DNA of 64,000 bases from an uncultured bacterium (GTDB taxonomy: Bacteria > Babelota > Babeliae > Babelales > Babelaceae), in NCBI GenBank assembly GCA_963848965.1, contig CAWKFG010000001.1:384001-448000 (forward strand). Reading direction: 5' to 3'. Numbering within the stretch: the first letter of the stretch is position 1; each line of letters opens with the position of its first letter. The notes beneath the pieces are model-generated. The model had not been told where the DNA came from. It saw only the letters and a list, made by a program, of their open reading frames with translations, and did no database searches. Positions 5,653 through 60,993 of the stretch are shown one piece after another. The position numbers and the translations under genes were made by a program.

Positions 5653-6030
5653 TTAAGGAACAAAGAGTTTGGGCTCTCCTGTCTCTTCTAAATCGTCTCC
5701 TATATCTATATCGGCTAGACATATATGTTGTGTATCCTGACTTGCTGGAATTTTAGATTTTATAGCTAAAAGTTGTTGCTTTCCCAGAGCGATTTCTTTT
5801 GCATAATAAGATGCCACTTCCTCTAGTAAAGATTGAGGACGAGATAATGACTTGTACTTTACATCCGGTAAATCAAAATCCAAAGGCTTTTTAGGAAATG
5901 ATAGATTAATAGAAGCAATAATAGTGCTTTGGTCGGTTATTACTTTTGAAGATTCTAGGGCCTGTTCCATGCTATAGAGTTTTGCGTTTACTATTATAGC
6001 TAAGACTATAAAACCAATATTTTTATACAT
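5653..6030 (-). CDS. exported hypothetical protein (signal + ME; BC-box-like PQSLLEE)
   Basis: signal peptide ending LYS-MEQ. Confidence 0.55.
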   Translation of the reverse strand: MYKNIGFIVLAIIVNAKLYSMEQALESSKVITDQSTIIASINLSFPKKPLDFDLPDVKYKSLSRPQSLLEEVASYYAKEIALGKQQLLAIKSKIPASQDTQHICLADIDIGDDLEETGEPKLFVP

Positions 6031-6263
6031 ATTCTAGCACCTTTAAGAAGTATTAGATTAACTTTATAAATTATATACTAATAGAAACTCGTAATAGGTC
6101 AAGCTCAAAGTTTTTATAGGAGATGCCCGATTAATACGGCTTTATAGAAAAATGAAGCTTCAAACAATGGTTTATTGACAAAGTGTATTTTGTGGGTTAA
6201 TTTAGTGGAGGTACTTATGAATTCGTAAGATTTATAACATTAGTTAGACTGGGGATCCTTGCT

Positions 6264-8438
6264 ATGAATTATTTATGTATGATATATGCTTTAACTGCCC
6301 TCATAAGCTTTTCCTTAAATGGGATGCAGCAAGAAGTAAAAACACATCCAAATGAAACTTATAAGAAAAATTTGGAGTTACAGCAACAATTAATAAGAAG
6401 CTCTTTAAAGAGAGCCATTGATTCTTTTGCTCATAGCCAAGTAACTTCAGTACCTCAAGTATCTCTCTACACAACTCAACCAACACAATGGTTATTAGCT
6501 CCGATGCAGAAGGCTATAGTTGATGCTCAAATGGATATGCTAAAAAATATAGCTCCGGATAAAAACGAATTAACTGTTGTCTGTGCAGGAAATAGTAACT
6601 CTTGTACAAGTGCTATTTATGAAAAACTTGCAGTTAAAAAGCGTGTTATCAGCACAACAACAGAGAAAGCTTCTCCAGAATCAGTAGATATTATACTAGC
6701 ACCGTATACACTGTATAGTGAAATGGAATCTCTATTTAAAGCTTCCGAAGATCTTCTGTCTTCAGAAGATCCTTTACCCTTAGAAAGTCATCCGCTATTT
6801 AATTATTTTAGTAAGTTAAGCAAAGATGGGGTCTTTATTGTCACATTGCATAGCGGACCTAACGTGCAGGATTTTACTAACTTACTACTTAATAAGCATG
6901 AGCTTGATCTTACGCAGGTGCATCAAGCTGTACAGCCAAAGTTAAAAATATTTAATTCAATAGAGACATTTCTTCGTTGTTTAGACATATTTAAAAAATA
7001 TTATACACAAAAGACTGGTAAAGTTATTACCTGTGACTTATCATTCTCTTTGCCTCATATACCTCTCGATGTATTTTGTAACGAATATGTAAAACAATAT
7101 CCAGAACTTGGACATATGAATAATGAGCAGCTTGAGAAGTTTATACGTCTTCTTTCAGTTTTTGCTGTTGGCAATGATATCGTAGACCTTGCTATTACTT
7201 TAAAAATGTCGATAAAAGAATCAAGTGATCAGTCACAGCGTTCTTTCAAGCCTATACCAGGTATAATGAGTCTGCTTAAGAGTGAACCTATTGTGTCTCA
7301 AGGTAAGTCTAATGAGATTTCGCTAGGGCAACAGAATCTTGATAAACAGATTCAGAATTTAGAGGGTAGTGAACTATCTATGGTCCATATTAAGGGTGCA
7401 GACGGGGCAGCACAATTAGAAGCCATAAAGTCCGTTATTGGTCGTCCAAATCTTAACGTTGTTGATTTAGGAGGGGGACGTGGTGAAACTAATGCTCTTA
7501 TGAAAGCGCTTAAGGACTCTGGCTCAAACGTTCATCTATTAAATATTGAGCCGCATAAACCCTTTAAACCATTATATCTTGATGCACAAAATGCTGTTGG
7601 TATAACAGATGTAGAGGTATGGGAGCAAACTGCTCAACAACTATCAGCGCCTGAGGTAGTAAAACACTTTAAAGATAATAAGTAGATATACTCTATGCTT
7701 CGCATTCATTTTACTTTCTGTTAGGCGATTTATACAAAGCATCATTAGAGTATGCTCATGGATCTTCTACAACGCCATTAGCACAATCCATTATGGAAAT
7801 ATTTTGACATGCTTCATGAAAAGGGAATATTAGTCATTACTATGCAAAGTGGTGCTGGTGCCCGTCTATTTAGAAATGCGTTACTTGGCAATCACGGACT
7901 TAACCAACCAGCGCCAAATGTTGCTGACGAAACAGTTCCACTTTTAAGTAGTTTTGGTAATATGGCAACCTTATTACGTTCCTTTGAACTTTTTGCAGAT
8001 CATTACCAAAAAGAAACTGGTAAAGTAATTACTATTAAAATGCACTACTCTGTTGCTAATGTGCCACTTGGTAGCTATACCATAGGACAAAATCCAGAAA
8101 CCAAAGGTTATATTCTTCATGATGAGAGTAAGGAGCAAAATATGCTTGCATTAAGGATGCTTGATTTCTACGGTAACTGGCGTGAGTTACAAACACTTGC
8201 AAATGTAACTCCGGAAAAGGTTGCTGCTATGGATGTTGAAATGCAGAGGAAATTAGGGCTGGAAAACGCTACGCAGGAAGCAATTATAGCTAAACGAGAA
8301 AATGCTCGTAAAATGCAAGAAACATTCCTTCATATTTTGAGAGTATTTGCTCTAGCAAGAAAGAATATGCAGCACCCTAATATTACTCTAGAATTTAGTA
8401 TTGAACCACAACAAAAGAATACTGTTTTATCTAAGTAA
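6264..8438 (+). pseudogene. exported tandem class I SAM methyltransferase-like protein split by two frameshifts
   Basis: ORFs 6264-7685 and 7809-8438; VVDLGGGRG; intervening frame VDILYASHSFY; the two halves share HPL..YF/GV..VT..SG/TGKVIT motifs. Confidence 0.7.
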
Positions 8439-8611
8439 AATGGAAGTTCCTTAAAAGAATGAGTTAAACTGCCGCTCAAGATGAACCTAGAGAGTTTGAG
8501 AGAGCTGAATTTCTAGGTTCAAAAAAAAGTTATGCGGGTGTAAGCAGTAATTAGTTTTGATAGAAAAGTAAAGCTTGTTGTATATCTTTAAGGTCAACTT
8601 CAAACAAGATA

Positions 8612-8712: not shown

Positions 8713-8874
8713 GATATAAATATTTGGTCATCAGAAACAAAATACTGCTCTATCTCATTACCTAAGACTTTCTTATAATTACTTATTAAATAATAATTTA
8801 TAATATATTAAATTATAGTTAATTATATAAATATGATATAAATACTTAAAAATATAATTAAAGGAATTATTCTT

Positions 8875-9637
8875 ATGAGACTATATATAGCTAGTATATT
8901 TTTAATATTAAGTGGTTCTTGCTTTGGAATGGCGTTAGAGTCTACGAAAGAGGAAAGTGGAAATGTAAATGCTCTTTTACGAGTTTTCCCAAGCGAGCTT
9001 CTTGAAGGACTAGAACCGTATAGAAGATATGCTCAATTTGCCGCTGTTCCTATCGATATTATACAATCAGCAAGTACACTTGAAGAGGCAATTGAAAGCT
9101 TAAAAAAACTTGAAAATATCTCGACCGGAGTACGCAAAATATTTTAGTGACCCAAGAATTATTGATATACTTATTAATACTTTAACTATTAAATTTAAAA
9201 AACGACAAAAAGACTTAATTGATAAACTTTATGAAAAAGAATTTAATCAAGAAGGGTTAGACAGTTGGCTGAATAAAATATTACCCATACAGCAGGAGCT
9301 GCTTGAGGCAGCTTCAGCAGGGAATTTAGAAAAGGTAAAGCAACTTCTTGCAAAAGATAAATATAATATTAATGCTTTAGATTTGGCTAACTATACTCCC
9401 CTTTTCAATGCCGTTGAGCAGGAGCATATTCCTATAGTTCAATATTTACTTGAACACGGAGCTGATATTCATGCTCAAGCTGTAACAGGTAATACGCCTT
9501 TACATCGTGCAATTATTAGAGATAATCCTCAACTAGTAAGATTATTACTTGAGTATGGTGCTGATCCTTGGATTGAGGATATGTTTGGTGCAACAGCCTT
9601 GGATAAAGCTCTACAAAAAAGAATCCAGAAATTTTGA
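8875..9637 (+). pseudogene. exported ankyrin repeat protein with F-box-like N-terminal motif, frameshifted near 9110
   Basis: two overlapping ORFs; TPLFNAV, TPLHRA; paralogous to 52089 and 56609. Confidence 0.8.
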
Positions 9638-10117: not shown

Positions 10118-10435
10118 TTAGCGGTTATTCTTGGTGGTCAAGGGTATAACTTCTCCATCTTTTTGAGCTTGTAAGGTATAACCTAAGCCATTAAATATTT
10201 TAATAAGACTAGCAGCGCTTATTCTTCTATTTCCAGAACGAATTCCTTGAATGATAGTAGGAGATACTCCAGCTTCTTCAGCTAACCTTCTTACTGTAAT
10301 TCCATCTCTATGCATAGCCGCTAAGATGAGCTCTGATATTAAGAGATTTTCGTAATCTCGTTCAAATTCCTTTAACTCGCGTGGGCTTAATTTTTCAATA
10401 AGCTCATCGTAGGTAGATTTCATTTTTTTAGTCAT
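10118..10435 (-). CDS. XRE family HTH protein (antitoxin-like)
   Basis: TVRRLAEEAGVSPTIIQGIRSG. Confidence 0.8.
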   Translation of the reverse strand: MTKKMKSTYDELIEKLSPRELKEFERDYENLLISELILAAMHRDGITVRRLAEEAGVSPTIIQGIRSGNRRISAASLIKIFNGLGYTLQAQKDGEVIPLTTKNNR

Positions 10436-11543: not shown

Positions 11544-12066
11544 ATGTATAGAAGTTTTTGTTCTACTCTAATGAGTATTGCATTATTTTTCTCTCTAGTA
11601 AATGCGCATGATGTGGAGCAAAGTACCTGCCATCATGACGAAGGAAACATCTTTATTATTCTTAATAAACCGTTGCACCGCTATCTTCAAGCACACTACA
11701 GCCATAAGTATGAAACAGCTAAAGAATTGTTAAAGCATATCCATACACTAGAGCTTATTATTCAAGAAAATACCTGCTTTTATTCTTTGTTTATTAAAGA
11801 TCTCTCTTCAAAATCTAAGATTATTATAAAAGGCAGAGAGCGATTGTTAGAATCTATTATCGGCCAAGGCATGATTGATAATACTATTATTAAGCTCTTC
11901 TTTTGTATATAAAGAGCGGTCATTGCAGTGTCACTTTAATAAACAGAAAAGAGTCGGTATTATTAAGCTTGATGAAAGGCAAGCTCAGAAGTTCTGTTAT
12001 CGTCTGTTAGCTCTTGCAGAAAGAACGGATAATCAACTTTATAAAAAGCTTTATCCTAACTTATAA
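11544..12066 (+). pseudogene. exported hypothetical protein, probably frameshifted
   Basis: signal peptide; overlapping ORFs 11544-11912 and 11875-12066. Confidence 0.45.
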
Positions 12067-12708: not shown

Positions 12709-13653
12709 TTAAGTAGTTTGCCATTGTTCTCCTTTTCGAACCATAACATTTAAAATACCAATAACCTTTCGCATAACAGCAATGAGAGCAACTTTAGCTT
12801 TTTTACCAACAGTGCGTAGCCGTTTATAAAAGCATTTAAGTGCAGGATTAAATCTGATAACTGCTAATGTAGCCATATAAAGGATATCACGGGTAGCTTG
12901 TCTACCACCGCTAATTGATGCAGTGCCTTTAGATCCACCACTTTGCTTAATAAAAGGTGCTACACCTAGAATAGCGGCTATTTGCTTATTACCGACTTTG
13001 CCAAGCTCAGGCATTTCTGCAAGCAAAGAGCAGGCAGTGACTTTGCCGATACCAGGCATAGACTCAATAATATGGCATTTTTTATTAAGAGATTCATTGT
13101 CTTGGATCAGCTGTTCAATTTCTTGTTCAACTTCCTGTAACTGTCTTTCCATAAAGGAGATATGAGCTTCAAGAAAATTTTTACAGTAAACTTGTTGAGG
13201 ATGCTGCAATTTATTGGTTTCTTGAACAATGTTTCGGACAATGTTAGTCCTGAATTTGACGAGAGCACAGAGCTTTAGCTCGTCTTGAGAACGAATAATC
13301 TCATGATATTTAGGCCGTTTTTGAGAAGCAAAGAGAGCAATCATTTGAGCATCAATTTTATCAGTTTTAGCCTTAATGCCTTCAGAGATGATGAAGGCTC
13401 TAATGCGTCTAGGCTGAACTTGCCAAGCATTATAATTATTAATGCTAAGTTCTTGCTTGAGAAGGAAATCGTAACCACCAGAAGACTCAAAAACGATCTG
13501 TACGACAGTATAAGCAGAAAGTACTTGAATGAGTTTATTGATTCCAGCTTGTGAGTTAGCAACTCTAAAGTCTTTAGCCACAGGATGTAAGTGAATATCT
13601 AAAAATTTTTTAGAGATATCGATGCCGACAAAAATATGTGATATAGTATTCAT
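12709..13653 (-). CDS. IS110 family DEDD recombinase/transposase
   Basis: protein identical to 2059-3003. Confidence 0.95.
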   Translation of the reverse strand: MNTISHIFVGIDISKKFLDIHLHPVAKDFRVANSQAGINKLIQVLSAYTVVQIVFESSGGYDFLLKQELSINNYNAWQVQPRRIRAFIISEGIKAKTDKIDAQMIALFASQKRPKYHEIIRSQDELKLCALVKFRTNIVRNIVQETNKLQHPQQVYCKNFLEAHISFMERQLQEVEQEIEQLIQDNESLNKKCHIIESMPGIGKVTACSLLAEMPELGKVGNKQIAAILGVAPFIKQSGGSKGTASISGGRQATRDILYMATLAVIRFNPALKCFYKRLRTVGKKAKVALIAVMRKVIGILNVMVRKGEQWQTT

Positions 13654-15082: not shown

Positions 15083-15457
15083 CTAAACAGACCATGTGCT
15101 TTTCTTAATCTCTTCTAGTGGTTCATTTGTTACTATAAGCTCATTAATCTTAGCTTCTGTAATGTTAATTTTAGGACCACTTGTATATTTCGTAACGGTT
15201 AAAGTATTTTCGCTATTAAAATCAATTGAAATTTCGTTAAAAGTTAGTTGTTTATTAAAGATTAGTGACAGTATTTTTTTTCCGCCTAAAAATTTTTTCA
15301 TAGCTGGATCAGAAGATAAAATTTCCATTTCACGGGGTTCTAATTGAATTACCTTTTTGACTTTTTCTTCCATTGCCATAAGATTAAATGAAAGAGTTAC
15401 CAGCTTTATAGCAATTAGTAAAGAAAACAGTCCCATAAATAGTTTTATTTGTTGCAT
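15083..15457 (-). CDS. exported hypothetical protein (signal + ME)
   Basis: LMA-MEE after hydrophobic leader. Confidence 0.6.
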   Translation of the reverse strand: MQQIKLFMGLFSLLIAIKLVTLSFNLMAMEEKVKKVIQLEPREMEILSSDPAMKKFLGGKKILSLIFNKQLTFNEISIDFNSENTLTVTKYTSGPKINITEAKINELIVTNEPLEEIKKSTWSV

Positions 15458-17500: not shown

Positions 17501-18429
17501 GAGCCTATCCGTAAATTCATAATTTGTTAAAAATAATGATAGCTACGGCAAAATAAACCATAGCCATATAGTTTAAAGCGTATTTTTCATAACGAACAAA
17601 CAAGCGCCTAAACCGATTGAGCCATGAATGCGTAGGTTCAATGAACCAGCGTTGATAACCTTCTGGTACACCATAAACTTTATTTTTAGCTTTTCTTTTA
17701 TTTTTCATTATTTTAGGTACATAGCTGTAATGCAGCAAGTAGGCTCTTATTTGCGCTGAATCATAAGCTGCATCTAAACTTATAATTTTGCTATAAGGCA
17801 TGGATATATGCTTAGGAATGGATAATAAGGTATCCAAAAATAGCTGAGAATCGTGCTGATTAGCGCTACCTAACGCACAACCGATAACTATACCGTTTTT
17901 ATCAGTTAATATGCTTCGTTTTGTTCCTAATTTTCTCCTATCTACTGGGCTCTTGCCTGTTTTCTCTGAACCCAAGGGCGCTTTAATATAAACACAATCA
18001 GCAGCTTGAGTTTCTAGACTAAGTCCGTGAATTTTATCATATTGGTCAAGTTCAGCATACCATAAATATTTAAAGAACTCGACAGACCTTAATTTTTGAA
18101 ACAGTTTATGGACAGCAGAGTACGATCCAAAGCATCTAGGCAATGCATTCCATTGTATACCTGTCCTTAACAGATAATAGATACCATTTATTGCTCTTTT
18201 CATATCCATTGAGGGTCTTCCCCGCTTTGATTTTTCGCTTATTTTTGGTATTATTTTTTCTATATCTTTCCATAAATTTGGAGTTATAAGAAACTTCTTG
18301 TTTATGCATACTTCATAACAATTTTTTGTATGACACATGTGTAAATCTCCTTCTTGATCGTTGATCGCGATTCTTTAGAAGGAGATTTTATTATATTTTC
18401 AACCTTTTTTCCATTTTAGAGATAGGCTC
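17501..18429 (-). mobile_element. IS5 family element (IS1031-like) with TTA target duplication
   Basis: terminal IRs GAGCCTATC / GATAGGCTC; TTA at 17498-17500 and 18430-18432. Confidence 0.9.
17517..18338 (-). CDS. IS5 family transposase
   Basis: GRP, LRTGIQWNALP, GKSPVDRRKLGTKRS, NQHD, DAAYDS, RWFIE..HSWLNRFRRL.VRYEK. Confidence 0.93.
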   Translation of the reverse strand: MCHTKNCYEVCINKKFLITPNLWKDIEKIIPKISEKSKRGRPSMDMKRAINGIYYLLRTGIQWNALPRCFGSYSAVHKLFQKLRSVEFFKYLWYAELDQYDKIHGLSLETQAADCVYIKAPLGSEKTGKSPVDRRKLGTKRSILTDKNGIVIGCALGSANQHDSQLFLDTLLSIPKHISMPYSKIISLDAAYDSAQIRAYLLHYSYVPKIMKNKRKAKNKVYGVPEGYQRWFIEPTHSWLNRFRRLFVRYEKYALNYMAMVYFAVAIIIFNKL

Positions 18430-18790
18430 TTAATATTAACTTTATGTAAGAGGAGCTCTAGTTGTGTAATATTGTCTGTTTCAGCTGCTGTGAAAAGTTG
18501 CTTTGTGTCTGCTTATTTAGGAACTGTTGCATTGCATTAGTGCTAATAAACAATCCAATAAAAGAAATAAAAATAATTCTTTTCATAGGGTCCTTCTGGG
18601 CTTTTTGGGAAATTTTATACAAACAAATGATTGAGATGCTCTTTTACGTTTAAGTCTTTTCTTCTTGATTGAATATTCATTAGTAGTATACTACATTGCT
18701 CCCTTTACTATGCGCTCAGTAGAGGCATTTGTTCCTGTCTTTGCTATAATAGTTAATAAAGGCATTGCTTTCGCCTCTCCTTTTTAGTAT

Positions 18791-18935: not shown

Positions 18936-19898
18936 ATGTGTTACAGTTTATTGCTTTCTCTCTTCATCGTAGTAGTATTACCTGCTTTAGGTATGGAACC
19001 TGATTGTTCAATCCGTATAACTGCCAAAGGAGATAAGAATGTACGTATTCCACTAGTCTGTCTTACACAAGAAGTAGCTCAGCTATTACAGAACAAGGAC
19101 ATTTGCCAATGGTTTAAAAATATTTCTCCTGAGCTCATTCAAACTCTTGTTCGGTTTTGTAACTTTATCCGAATGGAATCTAAAGTTGATACTCAATCTG
19201 GTATGAAAAAATTTGTTATACTCAATATCAGTTTTGAAGATATGCCAGAGTTTTTAAGGGTGCTCGTAATCCTTTCTTTACATCAGAAAGTTATTACCGA
19301 AGCTATACGTTACTATGTTGAAAAGGCAGAAAAACGTAAGATATACCTTAACAATTACCAGTTTCATACTGACGCTGAAAAAGATAGCTCTATAAAGTTA
19401 GAGATAGCTAAATGGTATTTTTTAAAATATGGTTCACACTTAGATATACCTCAAGGTTCCTTTCCATCGATATCGATACATGATCTTTTAGAGGCAGAAA
19501 AGAAGATAACAGCAACTACAGTGAGCAAGATGGTAGGAAAACTTGCACAAATTGATACTTATTGTCAACTAGATGATATAGTTATTATGTTAAATAATTT
19601 TCGTTTAACTTCTCTTGATGGAATGAACGAGTTGCTTATACAGCTTAAGGTGTCTAAAGAGAAAATAGGGGCTATAGATTTGAGGGGACATTATACTAAT
19701 AAAAATCTGATTAAACTATCCATCAACAGTCTTGATTCTGCTGATTATAAAGCTCTTAAGGTCCTTTACTTAGATAATGAATCAGTTTTTCTTCCTGGTA
19801 AAGTGTCTGCTCCTATTGTAAGTAGTGCATGGCAGCCTGTAGTAGATAAAGAGCCTGTGATTATTAAAATGCAGCCTGCACATAGCGTAATAAATTAA
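18936..19898 (+). CDS. exported protein, possible BTB/Skp1-like N-terminus and degenerate LRR
   Basis: ALG-MEP; IRITAKGD..IP, NISPELIQTLV; LNNFRLTSLDG, IDLRGH, LKVLYLDN. Confidence 0.55.
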   Translation: MCYSLLLSLFIVVVLPALGMEPDCSIRITAKGDKNVRIPLVCLTQEVAQLLQNKDICQWFKNISPELIQTLVRFCNFIRMESKVDTQSGMKKFVILNISFEDMPEFLRVLVILSLHQKVITEAIRYYVEKAEKRKIYLNNYQFHTDAEKDSSIKLEIAKWYFLKYGSHLDIPQGSFPSISIHDLLEAEKKITATTVSKMVGKLAQIDTYCQLDDIVIMLNNFRLTSLDGMNELLIQLKVSKEKIGAIDLRGHYTNKNLIKLSINSLDSADYKALKVLYLDNESVFLPGKVSAPIVSSAWQPVVDKEPVIIKMQPAHSVIN

Positions 19899-45908: not shown

Positions 45909-46772
45909 TTATTTCAATATTTTGACTTCATCTACAACCATATCCCAAGAACTATTTTTTGGCTTTTCTGGATCATCTTTTTTCTGAGCATTTAGTGTTA
46001 TATAGCCATTCTTTTCATAGAGATTTTTTATCCACTGTGGCTTTTCTATAATACACTGTAAAGATTTATAGCTTTTTGGATCTATTAACTCGATAAGAAA
46101 GTTGCTATCTGGTCTTACTGTAATATTCCAATAGCGCGATATTTCTGGATGTTTAAGAGCTTCTTCTACAGCTGCACAATCGCCATCGATTGTTTTACAT
46201 CTTCCAGTATTTGTAGGATCGGGCCAGTTACACCATTTTTCTTTTTGTTTTTCTATCTCATGTGGAGGAAGCTCTTTTTTCTTTAACTCTTCTGGTAATA
46301 TGTTGCAATTTCCGCAAAGATAGAAGAGCCCTTGTGGCTTGTCTGCAGGAACTTTCTCTGGAAAAACCCATCCATACTCATCACCGCCGTTATAACATTT
46401 ATCTTCATGGAAATAATATGCAAATTGATTTGCCATAGAATTAGTAGCATAGTTTTTCTTTATAAGACCTTTAAAAGATATACCAGAAATTTTATCATGC
46501 TTGTCACTGAGCCACCGATTACTTGTTGTTCTATAGGGATTGTTAGGGCATCCTTCTTCTTTTGCTGTAGCATACCACTGCTGCTTTGTAACAGGAAAGG
46601 ATACTGAATAGTGAGATGTTTTTGTAAGTGAAAAGGGCGTTTGGCTTGGATAGGTATAGTTATACGGCAAAGTAATGGCAGTCCAATGCTTTTTTGGACC
46701 TTCTTTGGGTATTTCCATACCATAAGTAACGAGGAAAAAAGAATTAATTATAACAATGAAAAAGTACTTCAT
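45909..46772 (-). CDS. exported Cys-containing hypothetical protein
   Basis: TYG-MEI; 287 aa. Confidence 0.65.
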   Translation of the reverse strand: MKYFFIVIINSFFLVTYGMEIPKEGPKKHWTAITLPYNYTYPSQTPFSLTKTSHYSVSFPVTKQQWYATAKEEGCPNNPYRTTSNRWLSDKHDKISGISFKGLIKKNYATNSMANQFAYYFHEDKCYNGGDEYGWVFPEKVPADKPQGLFYLCGNCNILPEELKKKELPPHEIEKQKEKWCNWPDPTNTGRCKTIDGDCAAVEEALKHPEISRYWNITVRPDSNFLIELIDPKSYKSLQCIIEKPQWIKNLYEKNGYITLNAQKKDDPEKPKNSSWDMVVDEVKILK

Positions 46773-46969: not shown

Positions 46970-48397
46970 ATGATCTTTAAGTTTGAAAGTAATCCTATGA
47001 GCAAAATTAATCTTTTACTAAAAACATTTCTGATAAACATTGTTACACTTTTATCATACAGTACTTATTCTTTTGTTTCGTTCTATCTTCTTAAAAATGA
47101 TAAAGGAGAAGTTATTCTTATTTTGGGTGATTATCACTATGAAGAATCTTTAGCACAGAAAAATAAAGAGCATATAGATCTTTTTATTAAAAAGGCATTA
47201 GAGTCCAGCAATGCTACTATTCCTTGTGTTGTTGAATTAGATAAAAATTTTGAGCCTGCTTTTAGAGGAGAAACTCTTCCTGCTGGTCTTGAAATGGCAG
47301 ATACTATAGCTCATTTAGCTTCTTATGCTTCAAAAGGAATAGCGCATGAAAAGCTTCAGTTTGTTCCTTATGATTCACGAAACTTTGATTCCATCCTTCT
47401 TGTAGCGGCAATGAGATGGTTGAGCCAATTGTTACCTCATGCGCAAGCGCAAAAATCTTTATTTTCTCGTGAACACTGGAACTCAAAAGTTAAGCCCAAT
47501 TTTCTTCATACACCAGAAGCTCAAAATTATACGGTAAAAGATTATTTTACCCAGCTTGATCAAAATGCTTTCTATATTAAGAGCCTTGCAGAAAAGTATA
47601 GCACGCATTCTTTTTACGCTTCAGTATTTAAAGAATTATATGACAAGTTTTTACAAGCGATAGAGCAAGCAAAAAACTATTTTACAAGGTCCTCCGCTGA
47701 TAGGTCGATGATTTTGGCAGTACTAGACTCGTTTGATGATTATTTAGAACCATCTAAATTTTTACAGAAGTATGAAGAGTTTAATAATACCCTTTTAATG
47801 TCGCTTGATTACTTATATTTTGATATTTGTTGCCTTGATAAAGTGTTGTCCTTATGCCCACAAACTTCAAATAAACTAGTAGTAATGGCAGGAATAGCTC
47901 ATGCAGCAGCTCTTTGTAATCAGCTTAAAAAAGTTGGGTATAAAAGTATCTTACAAGAGGTTCATGAAGCTCATATAGAAGGCACCGCAGGCTTCTTTTC
48001 AGCAGATCTAGCCTATCTTGAATTAGCCTTAATGCTCTTTTTTTCTCAAGGACATATACCAAATACAATATTACCAAAACTAGAAGAATCAACTCGCTTT
48101 GCAGCAGAGGCTTTTAAAGAAAGAGTGACCAGAGGCATTGAAAAATATGCTCAGCTAGGACTACTGCAAAAGCCAGTTAAACAAGCTACATCTGAAACTC
48201 TACCATCAGATTTTAAAGCACTTAAAGTTGAAGAACAGCCTTCAGTTTCGGTACCTGATTCTCGTTGTCATAACAATGGATGTCAAAAAAAAGCAACAAG
48301 TACTTGTACGCGCTGTAAAAAAGCTCGTTATTGTAGTAAAGAATGTCAACTAACAGATTGGTCTAAACAGCATAAATTAGTATGTAAACCAACATAA
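46970..48397 (+). CDS. exported TIKI/TraB/EreA-like domain + C-terminal zf-MYND
   Basis: LGDYH, VVE, DSR, MAGIAH; CHNNGC..CTRCKKARYCSKECQ..DW..HKLVC. Confidence 0.8.
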   Translation: MIFKFESNPMSKINLLLKTFLINIVTLLSYSTYSFVSFYLLKNDKGEVILILGDYHYEESLAQKNKEHIDLFIKKALESSNATIPCVVELDKNFEPAFRGETLPAGLEMADTIAHLASYASKGIAHEKLQFVPYDSRNFDSILLVAAMRWLSQLLPHAQAQKSLFSREHWNSKVKPNFLHTPEAQNYTVKDYFTQLDQNAFYIKSLAEKYSTHSFYASVFKELYDKFLQAIEQAKNYFTRSSADRSMILAVLDSFDDYLEPSKFLQKYEEFNNTLLMSLDYLYFDICCLDKVLSLCPQTSNKLVVMAGIAHAAALCNQLKKVGYKSILQEVHEAHIEGTAGFFSADLAYLELALMLFFSQGHIPNTILPKLEESTRFAAEAFKERVTRGIEKYAQLGLLQKPVKQATSETLPSDFKALKVEEQPSVSVPDSRCHNNGCQKKATSTCTRCKKARYCSKECQLTDWSKQHKLVCKPT

Positions 48398-50808: not shown

Positions 50809-51864
50809 CTATTCTTTAAGAAGCTCACAGGCGTCCTTTAATGGATCAGGATTATTTTCTTTAAGTTTGTGACCAAGAGCAGTGAGATAATTTTTTGTTC
50901 CAATGAGGTATATCCACGTGTATTCTAGTACTTTGCCGTATAGAATAATATAAGGAGAATAATCTTGTAATGCTGTTAGCCCAGGAATAAAAAGGCCGCG
51001 AAAATTTTGTTTAAGATGTACTTGATTCTTTAGAAGCCTTTTTTCGTCGTTCTCTGTAGGATCATAATACACTGGTTGTACGCCAAGCATAAGAGCGATT
51101 TCATTTAATTGTTGCGGCCAAGAAACCTGTTTTTTTTCCCATACTCGCTCTATCCATGCTTGTACGTCGTTTTTCTCATGAATACCTGTTTGCGGTACAA
51201 TAAATGTGCTTACAAATTGAGGAGAAAGCTGAATTTCTTTTTCGTAACATTTGTATATAAATGGTAAAGGTAGCAATGGGTCAGTAGTTCCTAGCCAAGC
51301 ATAGGAGGATGAGGAATCACTCGCATTTTTTCGTATAATATAAAAGAGTTCATTGGAATAACGCTTATAAATTTCCTTATAGGGAGTATAGTTCTCAAAA
51401 TCTATACATGTTTGTTCTTGGTGGTATACATTAAAAGTTGTAGGCTTTATCCCTAGTAAGGTATAAAGAAATGGTACATCATTAAACTCGAAAAAGTTAG
51501 AGCATTCTGCGTTATATCGTACACGGATGTTACCACTTTTTATCGTTATTTCCTTTTTCAGTTGCTCAATGAAGGGCTTTACCAGTTGTAGCTTATTCTT
51601 AAACTTCTCAAATCGCTTATTCCATTGAAAGATATGTATCTTCAGGTCTTGAGGTAAGCTGCTTACGTAGAAGTCTATATCTTTTTCTAGCGCAGTAAGA
51701 AAGTTTTTCTCAAAATCAGCAGTGAGTTGCGCTGCTTGGTTTTGCCATAATAGGCATGCTGCTTTATGAAGATAGTCATTACTTGTAAGTAGTTCTACCT
51801 CCATAGAATAAAGATTAATCCCTAAAACCAGAGATGTTATAAAAGCTATTGTTTTTTTAAACAT
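50809..51864 (-). CDS. exported hypothetical protein (signal + ME; F-box-like SSLPQDLKIHI)
   Basis: LYS-MEV. Confidence 0.65.
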   Translation of the reverse strand: MFKKTIAFITSLVLGINLYSMEVELLTSNDYLHKAACLLWQNQAAQLTADFEKNFLTALEKDIDFYVSSLPQDLKIHIFQWNKRFEKFKNKLQLVKPFIEQLKKEITIKSGNIRVRYNAECSNFFEFNDVPFLYTLLGIKPTTFNVYHQEQTCIDFENYTPYKEIYKRYSNELFYIIRKNASDSSSSYAWLGTTDPLLPLPFIYKCYEKEIQLSPQFVSTFIVPQTGIHEKNDVQAWIERVWEKKQVSWPQQLNEIALMLGVQPVYYDPTENDEKRLLKNQVHLKQNFRGLFIPGLTALQDYSPYIILYGKVLEYTWIYLIGTKNYLTALGHKLKENNPDPLKDACELLKE

Positions 51865-52088: not shown

Positions 52089-52805
52089 ATGAAAAAAGTA
52101 CTTTATTTATTGCTATGTGGATCCTGTATAGGTGCTAGTGCTATGGAACGGCAAATATACGAACAAACTTGGTTAGGGCTATTACCAAATGATTTACGAG
52201 TGGAATTGAGCTATTATAATATTAAGAACCAAGCTGAAGAAGTTAAAATGGCTGTAGAAGCTGCTAAAACTTATGATGAAGCACTTTATAAAGCAAAAGA
52301 ATTGTCACAGCAGGAGTGTTATGCTCTTGCATTCAATAACCTATCTTTTACACAGAACCTTATTACTTTGTTAATGAAGAAATATAATAAACCATTTGAT
52401 CCTGCAGTTGGATATGTAGATCCTGAAAAAGCTATAGCAGAAGCACTTGGGACTTTAGGAGCACAACAATGGCTCGAACTTAAATCGCTTGAATCAGCAT
52501 ATTTCGATGCGATATTTAAAGGGAACTGCGAAGTTGTAGAGTCTATCCTGAGCCAAGGAATAATAAATATCAATGCTAAAGATAAGTTGGGGTATACCGC
52601 TTTAATGTTTGCAGTAGATTACGGCCATAAGGATCTAATACTATTGCTGCTGCAGAAGGGTATTGATGTTAATGCTGAAAGTACTCTTAATTGGACTGCC
52701 CTTAAAAGAGCACAATTATATAATAGTAATGATATAGTTGAACTCCTCAAAATACATGGAGCAATTGATAATCGCGGCATAGAAGCTAGCTTTTCTAAAA
52801 GCTAG
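52089..52805 (+). CDS. exported ankyrin protein with N-terminal F-box-like motif
   Basis: ASA-MER; WLGLLPNDLRVEL; GYTALMFA. Confidence 0.88.
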   Translation: MKKVLYLLLCGSCIGASAMERQIYEQTWLGLLPNDLRVELSYYNIKNQAEEVKMAVEAAKTYDEALYKAKELSQQECYALAFNNLSFTQNLITLLMKKYNKPFDPAVGYVDPEKAIAEALGTLGAQQWLELKSLESAYFDAIFKGNCEVVESILSQGIININAKDKLGYTALMFAVDYGHKDLILLLLQKGIDVNAESTLNWTALKRAQLYNSNDIVELLKIHGAIDNRGIEASFSKS

Positions 52806-53967: not shown

Positions 53968-56508
53968 ATGAAAAAGTTGTGTTTTTATATAATAAGAGTA
54001 ATGGTTATTAGCTGCCATTTTCTTTCATTGTTGGCTATGGAGAAAGAGAAAGCAGGCTATAAAAAGGGTATAGAGCATTATAAACACAATGAATTTGAAC
54101 AATCAGTAAAGCAATTAAAACAGGCAGTTAATAGCACTGATGAATTTATAAAAGCACATGCTTTACATGCAATTGGTACTATCTATTTAAAGCAAAAAGA
54201 TTATGAGAAAGCAGAGATATATCTCTTGCGATCTTTGGCATGTAAAGAAAGACCAAATGCGCTTTTTAATAATTTAGGAATAGTATATTGGAAAACGTGG
54301 CGAATAGAAAAAGCTATAGAGTGTTTTAAACAAGCCTTAGCTGTAAAAGATGAGTGTGTTCAGCAGAACATTGCTATTTTATTAAAGGACCACCTTGCAC
54401 ACTCTTTTGCACCAGAAGCTTTACAATCGCTTGCTTTTGACAATAGAGAAGATATACAAGGTAAAGAGGAACAAGTGTCTCAAGAAAAGGCAGGTGAGCC
54501 TGTTACCTATAAAGAGCCTGAAACAAATAATATAGTAGCAATTGAACCTGTTGTGCCTAAAAAGCCAGAGCCTCGCCGTAAACACCGCAAAAAACCAAAG
54601 CGCACAAGTGTAAAACAAGAAGATCCAAAGGAAAAAAAAGAAACAGAGGAATCACCAAAGAAAGAAAATAACAATACATTGTATGAATGGCGCTGTGAGC
54701 ATATTTTTTCTCATAAACTACTGCAAGGGCATAAAGATCCTTGTGGCACTGCACTTGCTCTTTATTGTAATAAAGATGGCACAGAGCTTGCTATTCTTAC
54801 CTATAACTATTTATATCTTTGGGATACTCAAACAGGGATCTGTAAAGCTATTAAAGAGCTGGCAGATAAGGTAACCATTGCTCTTGCAAAAGATCATCCT
54901 CTAGTTTCTTGGAATGAAGATACACGAGAGCTTTATGTAGTGACAGCTACAGGAATTATAAAAGTACATGCTTTAGATGAATCACCCTTTCACCTTGTAC
55001 TTAAAAAAGAGGGAACCCTGTGGCCTCAAGGGCAATCGCATGGAACATTTAATAAAAATACTACTTTGTTTGCAGCTCTTATAGAACATGCAGGACAAAA
55101 GCTGTTAGTATATTGGGATTTAGAAAGTGGTCGTATGAAGATTCTTGATAAAGGTCCCTTTCTAACAACTCTTATTGGTTTACACTTTACCCATGATAAC
55201 AAGTTATGTGGGGTAATGAAAAATGGTCTTATGAAGGTATGGGATCTAGCTGGTAATTGTTCTACGTCTCAACTACAGGTCAATGGTACAAAAATGATTA
55301 GTGCGAGCGTAAGTCCTGATGGGCGTCTTATCTCTATGAGGGCTGCTGACGGTACAAAGCTATTTTCCTCTGCTACTCTTAAAGAGTTGCCTATACTCCA
55401 AGAGTCTAATTCTGCAGGCTATTTTGCTCGTGACGGTAGTTGTATAGTCGTAGCATATGCGAGCGGAAATATTACAGTATTTTCTGGTGAAGGAAAGGTA
55501 CTTTCTACTTTACAAGCAGGTCGAGAGCGCTTTTTACAAGTATGCTTAAATAACAGTAATGATATGTTTTTTGCTCGTACTGAATCAGACAAAATACAAA
55601 TCTGGAAGCGTTTTGAAGTACCTGAAGTTCGGGTAAACCAAGAGCAGTTACCTCTAGTAAAAGAGCAGCCAGTTCCTGCTTTATTTATACGAATATATTG
55701 CCCTAATATACAGTTTGAAGGTGATTTAGCTAGTGTAGAGGGAGATATTGTGCAGGAAAATGTGACTACTGTATTATGTGATAGTTCAAAACATTACATA
55801 TCTATCTATATGGCACATGGTTCTACTATTATAGTACGTCCGGCAAGGCAAGACCAGTTTGAACTACCAGTACAGCATAAGGGCTATATTTGGGTTTTAC
55901 GAACAATTAAACATCGAGGTGTGCTTGCTTCTGCAGGAGAAGATTGTTTAATCCATCTGTGGAATTTAAAGGAAAGAGATTGCTGTGGGCTTTTAAAAGG
56001 ACATAAGGCACCGATATGGTCTTTAGCATATGATGAAGAAACTGAAACTTTATTTTCGGGAGCTCAAGATGGAGTTATTCATAAGTGGAATCCTAAATAC
56101 AGTGAGTTGATAGGATCATTCATTGGGCACACTAAGAGAGTAAATGATGTAAAATCTTTTGCTGTTTTACAAGATGCGCAAATTCCTTCCAAAATACTCC
56201 TTTCGGCTTCAGATGACTGTACTGTGCGATTGTGGAATAGAGAAACTGGTACCTGTATTAAGATATTTACAGGGCATACAAAGCCAGTAAGACAGGTTAC
56301 TTATTGTAATAAACATGATCTTGTTGTTTCAACAAGCGAAGATTATACTCTGAGGTTATGGGATATACGTTCTGGAGAATGCCAAAAAGTAGAGGGGCTT
56401 TTAAATTTTCGGGTAAAAAAAGTTACTGTAAACGAACAAGAAGATTTTATCAGCGTTGTATATAGTGATGGTACAACTAGTACCTATCCAATTGTAAAGA
56501 AAGTATGA
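53968..56508 (+). CDS. exported TPR + WD40 repeat protein
   Basis: LLA-MEK; NNLGIVY TPR; GH...WD/WN repeats; basic linker. Confidence 0.9.
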   Translation: MKKLCFYIIRVMVISCHFLSLLAMEKEKAGYKKGIEHYKHNEFEQSVKQLKQAVNSTDEFIKAHALHAIGTIYLKQKDYEKAEIYLLRSLACKERPNALFNNLGIVYWKTWRIEKAIECFKQALAVKDECVQQNIAILLKDHLAHSFAPEALQSLAFDNREDIQGKEEQVSQEKAGEPVTYKEPETNNIVAIEPVVPKKPEPRRKHRKKPKRTSVKQEDPKEKKETEESPKKENNNTLYEWRCEHIFSHKLLQGHKDPCGTALALYCNKDGTELAILTYNYLYLWDTQTGICKAIKELADKVTIALAKDHPLVSWNEDTRELYVVTATGIIKVHALDESPFHLVLKKEGTLWPQGQSHGTFNKNTTLFAALIEHAGQKLLVYWDLESGRMKILDKGPFLTTLIGLHFTHDNKLCGVMKNGLMKVWDLAGNCSTSQLQVNGTKMISASVSPDGRLISMRAADGTKLFSSATLKELPILQESNSAGYFARDGSCIVVAYASGNITVFSGEGKVLSTLQAGRERFLQVCLNNSNDMFFARTESDKIQIWKRFEVPEVRVNQEQLPLVKEQPVPALFIRIYCPNIQFEGDLASVEGDIVQENVTTVLCDSSKHYISIYMAHGSTIIVRPARQDQFELPVQHKGYIWVLRTIKHRGVLASAGEDCLIHLWNLKERDCCGLLKGHKAPIWSLAYDEETETLFSGAQDGVIHKWNPKYSELIGSFIGHTKRVNDVKSFAVLQDAQIPSKILLSASDDCTVRLWNRETGTCIKIFTGHTKPVRQVTYCNKHDLVVSTSEDYTLRLWDIRSGECQKVEGLLNFRVKKVTVNEQEDFISVVYSDGTTSTYPIVKKV

Positions 56509-56608: not shown

Positions 56609-57541
56609 TTATTGCTTGGCTCTTTTACTTAAAAGCAAGTTTACTATATCTTTATGACCAAATTGAATAGCATACTTTAAGGCAGTTTTACCATCTTCAG
56701 CTTGTGCATTAATATCAGCCCCTTGTTGTAATAAAAATTCTACGATATCTTTGTAACCGTTTCTTGCAGGATTTAATAAGGCGGTTTTGCCAAAATCATC
56801 TCGAGCGTTAACATCAGCTCCTGCTTCTATAAGAAGTTCTACTACATCTTTATGTCCACTCATAGTAGCAAACATTAAAGCGGTATAACCATTATTATCT
56901 TTTGCATCAATATCTACGTTTTTATTTAACAATAGCTCAACTATTTCTTTGTGTCCGTATTTTGCGGCCCACATGAGTGGTGTCCAGCCATAGTCATCTC
57001 TTGCATTAGCATTAACTCCTTGGTCTAAAAGAGCTCTTACTGTTGAAAAGTTTTTTTCTACAGCGTCTAAAAGTTGTAATTCATGCGGGTGCCTTTGCAA
57101 CCATTCTTTTGTCCCTGTAACTGTAAGAGAGTGCGCTATATCTTCTTGTTTGCGAGGAGCTCTTTCTTTTTTATGTAAAACATGAATAAGAAAGTAGGTA
57201 AAGGAAAGACTATTGAAGATAGGGCTCAATTGATTATCTTTTAATACTTTTTTTATAATTGCTAGTGCTTCATTGTATATTGTAGGAGATTTGAGAATGG
57301 TTTCGATTATCTTGTAACATAGATATAAATCCAATTCTCGTTTAAGTTCTAATGGTAAAAGTGCAAAATGGCCTTCTTTATAAATATTTTCCAAAGCCAG
57401 ACTTGCTATAGGCAGTGCTGTGGTAATAATTTCCTTACTAGTAGGACCTGGATTGGGACTTTTTTGATCATGCGATATAGAGTGCATAGCTAAGGCACTA
57501 ATGAAGGAGGTACCGATAACAGCATAGAGTAGCTTTTGCAT
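56609..57541 (-). CDS. exported ankyrin protein with F-box-like motif
   Basis: FALLPLELKREL; about five ankyrin repeats. Confidence 0.9.
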   Translation of the reverse strand: MQKLLYAVIGTSFISALAMHSISHDQKSPNPGPTSKEIITTALPIASLALENIYKEGHFALLPLELKRELDLYLCYKIIETILKSPTIYNEALAIIKKVLKDNQLSPIFNSLSFTYFLIHVLHKKERAPRKQEDIAHSLTVTGTKEWLQRHPHELQLLDAVEKNFSTVRALLDQGVNANARDDYGWTPLMWAAKYGHKEIVELLLNKNVDIDAKDNNGYTALMFATMSGHKDVVELLIEAGADVNARDDFGKTALLNPARNGYKDIVEFLLQQGADINAQAEDGKTALKYAIQFGHKDIVNLLLSKRAKQ

Positions 57542-58769: not shown

Positions 58770-58962
58770 CTCGGTATTTATTTTTATAATTATAAAAGGC
58801 TAAATTAATCATAGTATAATTATATTTTATTCAATTTGAATATTTTAAGTCAATGGTGAGAGATTCAAGGTGTCAAGTGTCTTAGATTCGTTGTCAAAAA
58901 TATTCTGCATCTAAAAGGGTAATTCTTGTAACAGTTGATTGATATGAGATCTTGCAAATACT

Positions 58963-60138
58963 TTATAAGTTTTTTATGACCTGGTCTGTATTTTTCCATG
59001 ATACTATTTTACCGTTTGTTCGTATTTGGTCTTGACTGCCACCATAAATGACTATCGAAGTTTCGTTGCTATGTATTTCTTTTTTGAACCAAGCTAATGT
59101 TTTGAAAAAGTTATTTTGTATGGTTTCAAAAGACTTGATTTCTACGGGTATTGTACGACCACCAGCTTCTATAATAAGATCGATTTCGTTTTGATTGCTA
59201 TCTCTAAAAAAAGATAGACGGCATTGCATATTGAAGGCATAGCAGTTTTTTAGAAAGTCAGCGATAACCATATTTTCAAACAGAGCTCCATAAATAGTTC
59301 GATTCTTTGTTATGACTTCTCGGTTAACTCCCATAAGATGTGTGGCAAGACCGACGTCATAAAAGTAGAGCTTAGGAGATTTTGTAATCCTTTTACCGAG
59401 GTTATCTTGGTACGAAGGTAGTAGAAAAAGAATAAAACTAGACTCTAGGAGTGACAACCAGCTACGTGCTGTATTAATTGAGATACTACAATAAGTAGCT
59501 AACTGAGTAATATTTAAGGTCATTCCAATGCGTAATGCACATAGTTGAATAAATTTTTTAAAGCTTAGAACATTTTCAATATTTCTTACCGTACGTATAT
59601 CCCGTTCAACATATGTTGAGATGTAGTTTTCATAAAAATCTTTCTCGTTAACGTAAGGTTGGTATACACGAGGATAGAACCCTTTAAATAGTTGATCTTG
59701 AGGAGATTTACACAGTAACTGTGAATTCTGTAGTTCTTGTATTGAAAGCGGTAACAGAGTATAGAAATAAGCCCTGCCTGTTAAGGATTCGCTTATTTTT
59801 TCATGTAATAAAAAATTTTGAGATCCTGATAGAATATAATATCCTGGTTGTGGTTCTTTATCTGCTTCTACTTTTATTTGAGGAAATAGTTTTGGCGCAT
59901 ATTGTGCTTCGTCAATTATGATTCCATGCTCATTTTTATAATTGTTTAAAAATCCTTTAGGGTCTTGATTGGCAAACTCAAAAAGTTCAGTATCTTGCAT
60001 ATCTAAATAGGTATAATGGGGAAATAGCTCTTTGGCTAATGTGCTTTTTCCAGATTGTCGTGGGCCTATAATGGCTAAAATAGGTACTTGCTTTATACCA
60101 GATTTAATTGTCGGAGTTATAGATCTTTTAATAAACAT
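58963..60138 (-). CDS. AAA+ ATPase (AAA_14 + DUF4143)
   Basis: GPRQSGKS, IIDEAQ, SGSQ, ESLTGR, KLYFYDVG, EIDL..EIK. Confidence 0.92.
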   Translation of the reverse strand: MFIKRSITPTIKSGIKQVPILAIIGPRQSGKSTLAKELFPHYTYLDMQDTELFEFANQDPKGFLNNYKNEHGIIIDEAQYAPKLFPQIKVEADKEPQPGYYILSGSQNFLLHEKISESLTGRAYFYTLLPLSIQELQNSQLLCKSPQDQLFKGFYPRVYQPYVNEKDFYENYISTYVERDIRTVRNIENVLSFKKFIQLCALRIGMTLNITQLATYCSISINTARSWLSLLESSFILFLLPSYQDNLGKRITKSPKLYFYDVGLATHLMGVNREVITKNRTIYGALFENMVIADFLKNCYAFNMQCRLSFFRDSNQNEIDLIIEAGGRTIPVEIKSFETIQNNFFKTLAWFKKEIHSNETSIVIYGGSQDQIRTNGKIVSWKNTDQVIKNL

Positions 60139-60297
60139 TTTGCACCTTTCACTATATGAATATCATAACATATAGTGATCGATTTTCATAGATTTTTCTG
60201 TGTTTTAAGCACATTGGACAAAGTATTCCATGAAGGAGGTTATCAGGGCAATAAGGATCAGTGTATGAAGAAAGGCTTGCTGCTCATCTTTGCCTGT

Positions 60298-60993
60298 TTA
60301 ACTTTTTTGATGCATGGCACATTCAAGTATCTTTTCTGTAGTTATATTGTTTCTTAAGCGAGCAAAGCTTAGAGCTGTGTCACCATGAGGATTTTGAATG
60401 CTTGGATTTGCACCATACTCTAATAGTAGTTTAACATGAGCATCATAACCATTGAATGCTGCCAGCATTAACGGGGTCAAGCCTTCGCGGTTTTGAGCAT
60501 TAACCTTGGCTCCTGCTTTTAATAATAGTTCTGCTATAGATGTACTTCCAAGAGCCCTAAATAAAGCAGTTTCATTAAGTCTATCTTGAGCATTACTATG
60601 AGCACCAGCCTTAAGAAGGCGCTCTACTATGTCTTTATGGTTACCTGCTGCAGCGGACATTAATGGAGTGTTACCAGATTCACCTTGAGTATTAATGTTG
60701 GCACATGCATTAAGAAGAAGCTCTACTATTTCTTTGGATCCTCGTCTTGCAGCGTATATTAAAGCAGTGTCGCCATACTGGTTTTTTGCATTAACATCAG
60801 CACCTTTATTAATAAGCTCTTTTACGGTATCTACTTTACCTGTTTGTGCTGCCATCATTAAAGGAGTTTGGTCGCCGCTCCATAGTATGAAGTGTTGGTT
60901 ATCATCAAGACTTATAACTCTAATTTCTTCCATTCCAAGAGCATTGATAGTGAATCCAATTATTCCTGTGAGTACTATAATTTTCATAAACAC
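60298..60993 (-). CDS. exported ankyrin repeat protein
   Basis: ALG-MEE; five to six ankyrin repeats. Confidence 0.92.
   Translation of the reverse strand: MFMKIIVLTGIIGFTINALGMEEIRVISLDDNQHFILWSGDQTPLMMAAQTGKVDTVKELINKGADVNAKNQYGDTALIYAARRGSKEIVELLLNACANINTQGESGNTPLMSAAAGNHKDIVERLLKAGAHSNAQDRLNETALFRALGSTSIAELLLKAGAKVNAQNREGLTPLMLAAFNGYDAHVKLLLEYGANPSIQNPHGDTALSFARLRNNITTEKILECAMHQKS

Follow-up and report, generated by a model that had tools for sequence, protein, structure and literature searches.

Why do so many unrelated genes of one genome place a methionine directly behind a signal peptide? The question is raised by a window of 64,000 nucleotides (nt), i.e., the whole stretch analysed here (G000:C1:384001-448000), from an uncultured, protist-parasitic member of the Babelaceae, the genome of which (G000) comprises 1.73 Mb in five contigs with 37% G+C. 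For 16 predicted proteins of the window, the original prediction had listed a hydrophobic leader ending in front of Met, mostly followed by Glu or Gln, had described the passengers as unrelated, and had proposed that signal peptidase I exposes a host-like N-terminus. All 16 quoted strings were located in frame, each behind a hydrophobic N-terminal stretch, and the passengers are indeed unrelated: five are ankyrin proteins, one combines TPR and WD40, one carries MutS domain V, and nine belong to no Pfam family. Across the genome, about a fifth of the genes appear to encode a Sec-type signal peptide of about 20 residues, followed by Met and then mostly by Glu or Gln. Tentatively, we favour the reading that the predicted cut by signal peptidase I leaves Met-Glu/Gln at the N-terminus, as a mark of host-directed proteins.

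Leader and methionine in the G000 genome

Open reading frames (ORFs) of at least 80 amino acids (aa) were taken from the first ATG, GTG, or TTG and overlaps were removed, which resulted in 1481 ORFs. At residues 18 to 24, Met-Glu or Met-Gln is found 13, 28, 30, 33, 35, 14, and 13 times, respectively (166 in total), compared to 0-8 times per position at residues 30-79. A strict rule is passed by 306 ORFs, 248 of which lack later membrane segments. It asks for Met directly behind a small residue (index 14-49), for an 8-residue window immediately upstream that is strongly hydrophobic and poor in charges, and for a hydrophilic decapeptide on the downstream side. A weight matrix that covers only positions -13 to -1 of 204 Met-class leaders selects the Met site in 169 of them and recognises 250 of 369 other hydrophobic N-termini, where the predicted +1 residues are diverse. 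With 248 Met-class ORFs next to 250 leader-bearing ORFs without Met, about half of the signal-peptide-like leaders precede Met, the share of which in the proteome is 2.1% (binomial p about 1e-272), and the frequency of this arrangement is far above chance. For the 306 ORFs, the residue following Met is Glu (154), Gln (43), Lys (31), Ser (15), Asn (10), His (8), Asp (7), or Ala (7) in the most frequent cases; position -2 is occupied by Tyr (80) or Phe (50) and position -3 by Leu (112).

Codon periodicity is present within the leader (T at codon position 2 in 0.52-0.72). Shine-Dalgarno (SD)-like sites precede 114 of 222 first starts but only 5 of 222 internal ATGs, the comparison sets being the starts of leaderless ORFs (120 of 314) and Met codons deep in genes (34 of 305). 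The mean folding energy of the 50-nt region amounts to -3.6 kcal/mol at first starts versus -7.5 kcal/mol at the internal ATG, with -6.3 kcal/mol at deep ATGs and -7.3 kcal/mol at non-Met predicted cleavage sites as controls. Ordinary ATG starts are followed by Lys in 17%, Glu in 7.5%, and Gln in 3.3% of cases, whereas Glu or Gln follows the internal Met in 197 of 306 (64%). Due to the periodicity, the SD-like sites, the folding, and the profile of the second residue, we conclude that translation begins at the upstream ATG and includes the leader, with the Met as an internal residue. The internal ATG could attract gene finders and thus deserves a warning for annotation; the public collection has the long form in the one case checked.

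In its general build, the leader, whose first ATG is preceded by a ribosome-binding site (RBS), carries one or two basic residues as well as a hydrophobic core and has an end of the type [Leu/Ile]-[Tyr/Phe]-[Ala/Ser/Gly]. Basic n-region, hydrophobic h-region, small residue at -1, and a signal peptidase I gene are all present, as is typical for the Sec type. With position -1 excluded from the rule, Ala (86), Ser (73), and Gly (63) account for 222 of 378 residues there, so that the assignment to signal peptidase I by the original prediction stands as far as the leader resembles a normal substrate, the cut itself being predicted. Position -3 is mostly Leu, Ile, Thr, Ser, Val, or Ala; Leu at this position is unusual by comparison with Escherichia coli. 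Leader lengths are narrowly distributed with a mode of 18-21 residues. Met and non-Met class are alike in median length (20 vs. 21), in the mean number of Lys and Arg within the first 8 residues (1.34 vs. 1.31), and in the Leu-Tyr/Phe-small end of the c-region. One Peptidase_S26 match was obtained in G000, and homologues occur in 41 of 41 sampled genomes. Because of the same length, charge, and c-region end together with the single signal peptidase I gene, one enzyme most likely cuts both leader classes, judged from sequence. A dedicated second signal peptidase was considered and is ruled out in G000 by the single match; tandem signal peptidase duplicates exist in some relatives without any link to the motif, as G001 has one copy and strong use and G010 two copies and no use.

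Other leader types do not fit. The signature of lipoproteins processed by signal peptidase II is missing, as +1 is Met without a Cys lipobox and is followed by Glu, Gln, or Lys, and in contrast to type IV pilin-like leaders, which are short and charged and are cut behind Gly by prepilin peptidase ahead of the hydrophobic segment, the hydrophobic segment precedes the Met here, with a Glu/Gln/Pro/Ser/Lys-rich sequence behind it. In the positional profiles from +2 to +21, no Arg/Leu pattern of a PEXEL-type RxLxE/Q/D motif was found, and downstream of Met no further motif emerged except for Glu at +2 and +4 and the general Glu/Gln/Pro/Ser/Lys-rich stretch. The non-Met class contains no sign of decay from former Met sites, since Leu, Ile, and Val at +1 are near their proteome frequency. 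The commonest dipeptide after non-Met predicted cleavage sites is Gly-Gly (6 of 250, three of the six being WD40 proteins; examples in G000 are L029:15442-17385, L002:12003-13364, and L029:17415-18752), which may represent a second, minor N-terminal type.

Passenger classes, conservation, and occurrence in relatives

The Pfam scans covered contigs C1-C3 together with the initial 397 kb of C4, which amounts to 65% of the genome. The Met-class set of 164 proteins combines 114 ORFs of the first rule with 50 of 59 added by a refined rule; four of the nine omitted ORFs are window ORFs, which were scanned separately. This set contains 56 ankyrin, 14 C2H2 zinc finger, and 10 WD40 proteins, about 60 without a family, and in smaller counts LRR, RING-only, DnaJ, and AAA proteins (two each) as well as IBR and MYND. 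Single cases are UCH, PP2C with ankyrin, a dual-specificity phosphatase, MutS V, Peptidase_S9, a sulfotransferase, and others. The sole envelope protein is ExbD, the “leader” of which is a membrane anchor. The non-Met set consists of all the ORFs of this class in the covered part that reach a length of 100 aa (234 ORFs). It includes 22 envelope housekeeping proteins, i.e., two SurA-like and two HtrA-like proteins, Peptidase_S41, Skp, FKBP, two Omp85/POTRA proteins, two solute-binding proteins, three penicillin-binding proteins, LepB, MreC, TonB, M23, two SppA, PASTA, and Cache. Furthermore, it contains glycosidases (GH1, GH3, GH18), a nucleoside hydrolase, a clostripain-like peptidase, esterases, many glycosyltransferases, and several cytoplasmic false positives.

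The original prediction had made its validity depend on Met being less common in ordinary periplasmic proteins, and Met is in fact absent in 22 of the 23 envelope housekeeping proteins named by Pfam. The association of eukaryote-like versus envelope housekeeping proteins with the Met class is strong (Fisher, p = 1.3e-11; the table used 24 non-Met eukaryote-like proteins, of which a recount finds 22, and the difference works against the association). According to a regular-expression census of the whole genome, 84 of 104 ankyrin ORFs belong to the Met class, eight have a leader without Met, and 12 are leaderless. The split repeats in the relatives G001 and G005, with PLA2_B, a histone deacetylase, a WD40-like protein, and three ankyrin proteins among 30 Met-class ORFs and a SurA-like protein, a periplasmic binding protein, LepB, and an M48 peptidase among 48 non-Met ORFs.

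Due to the small number of homologues of Met-class genes, conservation was measured on paralogues. The mature parts of 498 leader proteins gave 1439 homologous pairs, of which 1109 are Met-Met, 271 mixed, and 59 non-Met. When paralogues were aligned at their N-termini, with a Met-class query and any partner accepted, the residue in the Met column was shared by 0.77 of the 270 pairs that are less than 50% identical, as opposed to 0.22-0.52 for the neighbouring columns; for the 67 pairs with 50-70% identity, the value of the Met column is 0.94. The leaders of homologous Met-Met pairs share an identity of 0.17 compared to 0.14 for random pairs. Met is thus the best-kept column among diverged paralogues, and the leader around it is near random similarity. 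One Met-class protein has homologues in 6 of 151 genomes. A search with the MutS-like protein of the window yielded eight proteins, of which the first four alone align over most of the query; in a metagenomic homologue with 69% identity the Met is kept and the next residues are changed.

Relatives, all of them within the phylum, were sampled at the ORF level with 200 kb each (90 kb in case of G008). A clear signal was observed for G001 (33 of 195 ORFs in the Met class, Glu after Met), G141 (23 of 169, Asp or Glu after Met), G039 (22 of 170), and G005 (19 of 193, Asp after Met), and a weaker one for G040 (14 of 178), whereas G024 (9 of 186), G010 (2 of 193), and G008 (1 of 84) exhibit no enrichment. 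In G001, G005, and G141, Asp, Glu, or Asn lead after Met. With a narrow DNA pattern that encodes [Leu/Ile..]-[Tyr/Phe]-[Ala/Gly]-Met-[Glu/Gln], 764 matches were obtained in 61 genomes compared to 281 in the reversed control; 36 of the 61 genomes have at least 10 matches and at least twice the control, with ratios by family from 5.5 to 1.4. The rule hence recurs unevenly across the sampled relatives. Use of Met roughly follows genome size and effector load, and the LepB sequences of relatives ranging from no use to strong use are 53-60% identical.

Window sites and further exported proteins

The strict rule is passed by 15 of the 54 window ORFs, including the helix-turn-helix (HTH) protein 10118-10435 as a false positive; two of the 16 listed sites miss its thresholds. 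Numbered from the first in-frame start, the Met of these sites is residue 19-35, and it is followed by Glu, Gln, or a similar residue in 14 of 16 cases. A later in-frame ATG would result in a more usual leader of 17-20 residues in four of the 16. Fourteen of the ORFs encode 124-1011 aa, and the other two are short (90 and 54 aa).

Eight sites belong to ORFs annotated as having no Pfam family (a slash marks the predicted cut). On the plus strand these are the 473-aa ORF 6264-7685 (leader 6264-6323, Met codon 6324-6326, ...FSLNG/MQQ) and the 320-aa ORF 18936-19898 (leader 18936-18992, Met codon 18993-18995, ...LPALG/MEP). On the minus strand, the 125-aa ORF 5653-6030 (leader 5971-6030, Met codon 5968-5970, ...AKLYS/MEQ), the 124-aa ORF 15083-15457 (leader 15374-15457, Met codon 15371-15373, ...FNLMA/MEE), the 342-aa ORF 31661-32689 (leader 32627-32689, Met codon 32624-32626, ...TIIYC/MEE), the 287-aa ORF 45909-46772 (leader 46719-46772, Met codon 46716-46718, ...LVTYG/MEI), and the 351-aa ORF 50809-51864 (leader 51805-51864, Met codon 51802-51804, ...INLYS/MEV) are of the same kind. 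In case of the remaining one, the 732-aa ORF 35226-37424 on the minus strand (Met codon 37338-37340, MRIYIFLLFFLVPFLHG/MEL), the second in-frame ATG, 17 codons ahead of Met, is the likelier start.

The ankyrin proteins comprise the 360-aa protein 39081-40163 (minus strand, Met codon 40059-40061, MRIVLSITALFFIHFSSSLA/MEL), for which an ATG 20 codons ahead of Met is the likelier start, the 238-aa protein 52089-52805 (plus strand, leader 52089-52142, Met codon 52143-52145, ...IGASA/MER), and the 231-aa protein 60298-60993 (minus strand, leader 60934-60993, Met codon 60931-60933, MKIIVLTGIIGFTINALG/MEE). The 310-aa ORF 56609-57541 (minus strand, leader 57488-57541, Met codon 57485-57487, ...ISALA/MHS), which lies outside the strict rule, contains ankyrin-repeat sequence, a label given by regular expression and reading by eye and not by a Pfam call. 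Other recognisable passengers are the 846-aa TPR and WD40 protein 53968-56508 (plus strand, leader 53968-54036, Met codon 54037-54039, ...LSLLA/MEK) and the 1011-aa MutS domain V protein 20295-23330 (plus strand, leader 20295-20348, Met codon 20349-20351, ...QSLQA/MES).

The two short ORFs look like remnants. The 90-aa ORF 8875-9147 (plus strand, leader 8875-8928, Met codon 8929-8931, ...GSCFG/MAL) overlaps the start of the ankyrin-like ORF 9110-9637 in a different frame and is therefore probably part of a frameshifted ankyrin gene, and the 54-aa ORF 18458-18622 (minus strand, Met codon 18530-18532, MKRIIFISFIGLFISTNA/MQQ) is situated beside a transposase ORF (17517-18338). Just downstream of ORF 6264-7685, the 209-aa ORF 7809-8438 repeats the middle of this Met-class ORF, with GKVIT-like strings in similar surroundings common to both, which suggests that the gene was duplicated in part and in tandem or that a second copy has been broken. 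At 2059-3003 and 12709-13653, the window contains two transposase-like ORFs of 314 aa that are identical to each other, and exact repeats of the N-termini of ORFs 5653-6030, 10118-10435, and 11544-11912 are present on contig C3 (L039; 9.5 kb). Due to both observations, either a part of the window is a repeated segment flanked by insertion sequences or C3 is an unplaced copy.

MutS domain V proteins with signal peptides were found three times (20295-23330, 61305-63998, and L045:1-3579), the leader being followed by Met in two cases and by Gln in the third; ORF 61305-63998 runs off the window, and the full gene is L024:2346-5396. Beyond close relatives, their nearest matches are eukaryotic MSH6-like proteins, and an exported MutS-like ATPase is odd. 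At L013:2934-11718 (G000:C1, about 233-242 kb), at least seven exported C2H2 zinc-finger array proteins of eukaryotic type are clustered, all in the Met form. Several ankyrin proteins (window 52089-52805 and 56609-57541; L029:7478-8461, L033:2000-2719, and L032:9704-10717) share an LLPxELxxEL-like motif 15-60 residues past the leader that is reminiscent of an F-box, although Pfam calls no F-box on the ankyrin proteins with this motif at E<=1e-3. Near-identical Cys-rich C-terminal tails (...CTRC.KARYCSKECQ...) of the MYND-finger kind occur in 32818-33282 and 46970-48397, and Pfam calls MYND fingers on other G000 proteins. Four of six GNAT (Acetyltransf_1) ORFs of G000 have signal-peptide-like N-termini (C4:739307-739843, C4:849042-849737, C5:65882-66487, and C4:495730-496557). 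Periplasmic acetylation by exported GNATs was dropped as a candidate, since half of the proteome has leaders and four of six thus prove nothing.

Meaning of the methionine

According to the reading we tentatively favour, signal peptidase I would cut between the small residue and Met, and the exported protein would start with Met-Glu or Met-Gln. This N-terminus would be a determinant that is read after the periplasm and is specific to proteins of the host cytosol or nucleus. Two sub-mechanisms appear about equally likely. In one of them, Met ahead of Asp, Glu, Asn, or Gln would provide the protein in the host with an N-terminus that looks native, retains its Met, and is no degron; in the other, Met-Glu/Gln would be a second-step sorting mark that sends these proteins, unlike periplasmic residents, to the host. 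The Met form may hence be an undescribed mark for sorting or host compatibility. From the interpretation given in the original prediction, the class specificity, the leader resembling signal peptidase I substrates, and the bias after Met are retained, the latter with 214 of 306 residues (Glu 154, Gln 43, Asn 10, Asp 7) matching the NatB type, in which Asp, Glu, Asn, or Gln stands behind a retained Met. In four genomes, the residues behind Met stem from this set. The substrates of NatB are nascent chains; N-termini with Ala, Ser, Gly, or Thr are likewise not classical Arg/N-degrons.

Several points weigh against the favoured reading. Because of the cotranslational action of NatB and the equally non-degron nature of Ala, Ser, Gly, and Thr, host mimicry alone does not explain the requirement for Met. 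The rule is not universal in the phylum: the sampled parts of the small genomes G024, G010, and G008 lack the enrichment and nine ankyrin-like proteins of G040 have leaders without Met, both of which speak against a universal export code. About 22 eukaryote-like proteins of G000 are in the non-Met class, at least three of which are really of the Met type and were missed by the strict rule. In case of one Met-class protein, four of five homologues have a signal peptide without Met and only the closest keeps it. Secretin genes (PF00263), as the export machinery examined, do not track the motif, being present in five of five genomes tested, two with and three without the signal. The classes and the predicted cleavage sites derive from home-made rules with a background rate of 1-5% of ORFs, as estimated from relatives without signal, and with false positives such as ribosomal protein L10, ExbD, YmdB, and the HTH protein of the window; likewise, the class comparison stems from the 65% of the genome covered by Pfam. 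As a separate observation, three secretin-domain genes lie within 8 kb in G000 (C4:767163-774663), and four relatives have two or three.

It is scarcely credible that the pattern is an annotation artefact, with the internal ATG as the real start and the “leader” as untranslated T-rich open DNA. AT-rich upstream DNA does read as Phe/Leu/Ile-rich strings, but the leader has codon periodicity and a narrow length distribution with its mode at 18-21, RBS and low structure are found at the first ATG and are absent at the second, the small residue before Met occurs unselected in 59%, and the equally AT-rich relatives G010 (GC 0.32) and G008 (GC 0.30) are devoid of the pattern. Improbable, too, is a dual initiation at both ATGs by which each protein would be made both for export and, without its leader, for the cytoplasm. 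The in-frame ATG right at the junction suits such a design, and the A-rich sequence after and U-rich sequence before it could allow SD-independent initiation; SD-like sites, however, precede 5 of 222 internal ATGs compared to 114 of 222 first starts, the internal region is as structured as the non-start controls, the second residue is unlike that of real starts, and cytoplasmic copies of about 250 host-directed proteins have no obvious use. A general preference of the enzyme, in which the signal peptidase I of this lineage cuts best before Met and good substrates drift towards it, is very improbable. Half of the leaders having Met, the single peptidase gene, and the c-region common to both classes are consistent with it, but envelope housekeeping proteins, as the expected best-optimised substrates, are without Met in 22 of 23 cases, the exception being a membrane anchor, and relatives with 53-60% identical LepB span no use to strong use.

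The main rival, which we consider unlikely, is a historical footprint: cytosol-type genes, perhaps acquired from hosts, would have gained a signal peptide upstream, and the Met would be the old start, functionless now. This agrees with the confinement of the Met form to fast-evolving, lineage-specific genes, such as the one with homologues in 6 of 151 genomes, with the lack of Met in the four more distant homologues of one protein, and with the wide variation among relatives that roughly goes along with genome size and effector load. A functionless Met, on the other hand, is not expected to be the best-conserved column in old paralogues, the leaders of which are at random similarity, nor to be followed by Glu or Gln in 64% of cases compared to about 11% at real N-termini. 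Moreover, a relic RBS ahead of Met is missing, as the 5 of 222 SD-like sites are below the 34 of 305 at deep Met codons, leaderless paralogues as possible ancestors are few (12 of 104 ankyrin ORFs), and the cleavage site must coincide exactly with the old start in hundreds of genes.

Compared to known systems, the G000 leaders resemble classical Sec/signal peptidase I substrates in the basic start, the hydrophobic core, the small residue at -1, and the length of about 20 residues; +1 is weakly constrained there, whereas it is Met in about half of the leaders here and in one passenger class only. Residues just after the cleavage site set the onward destination according to the lipoprotein +2 rule and in the lipoprotein export signal of Bacteroidetes. 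Here too post-cleavage residues would decide on the next location (retention versus outer membrane, surface, or vesicles in lipoproteins), but lipoprotein signals depend on signal peptidase II and on a Cys at +1 that is lipidated, as opposed to Met and no lipobox. In complex plastids, Phe at +1 steers further import after removal of the signal peptide. The likeness is that one residue exposed by signal peptidase picks a secretory subset for further membrane passage; that system is eukaryotic and uses an aromatic +1 followed by a transit peptide, and a transit peptide of this kind was not seen here. Bipartite targeting signals of complex plastids are the subject of PMC3774753. In case of the PEXEL of Plasmodium, a parasite likewise marks host-directed proteins by a matured N-terminus with an acidic or amide residue nearby, as far as covered by excerpts on the mature N-terminus of exported proteins (PMC10653839; bioRxiv 10.1101/2023.07.12.548774). 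There, RxLxE/Q/D is cut by plasmepsin V downstream of a hydrophobic stretch, whereas here the predicted cut is a signal peptidase site in a bacterium with a constant Met, so that the resemblance, taken as an analogy, would be functional only.

For Chromulinavorax, signal peptides are given for 44% of the coding sequences and 78% of the ankyrin proteins in the passages considered from PMC6561590, and for Babela, the corresponding passages of PMC4378268 give signal peptides on 79 of 126 ankyrin proteins and type II as the only secretion system detected. The passages from the main texts, as distinct from the supplements, of both papers contain no rule for post-cleavage residues, and the word “methionine” is absent from both main texts. 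According to these descriptions, a very large part of the proteome of cultured Dependentiae is exported via Sec. In the literature searched, i.e., open-access journals, the Met rule is undescribed. The Met mark is not a general type II secretion tag, because likely secreted hydrolases lack Met and secretins occur with and without the signal. Possible, though held with more reserve than the marking by Met as such, is a two-tier Sec code in the Dependentiae, in which translocon and peptidase would be shared and Met-(Glu/Gln/Asp/Asn) would separate host-bound from periplasmic and digestive proteins.

For practical purposes, the rule offers a predictor of effectors from sequence only, which flags about 60 of the 164 Met-class proteins that are without a recognisable domain. 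Even if the Met should be only a footprint, it would still document the birth of signal peptides in hundreds of genes. As a mark, it represents a candidate answer to the question of how Dependentiae tell host-directed from periplasmic proteins, and the two-tier code, if true, would explain the choice of effectors in a cultured organism with only a type II system.

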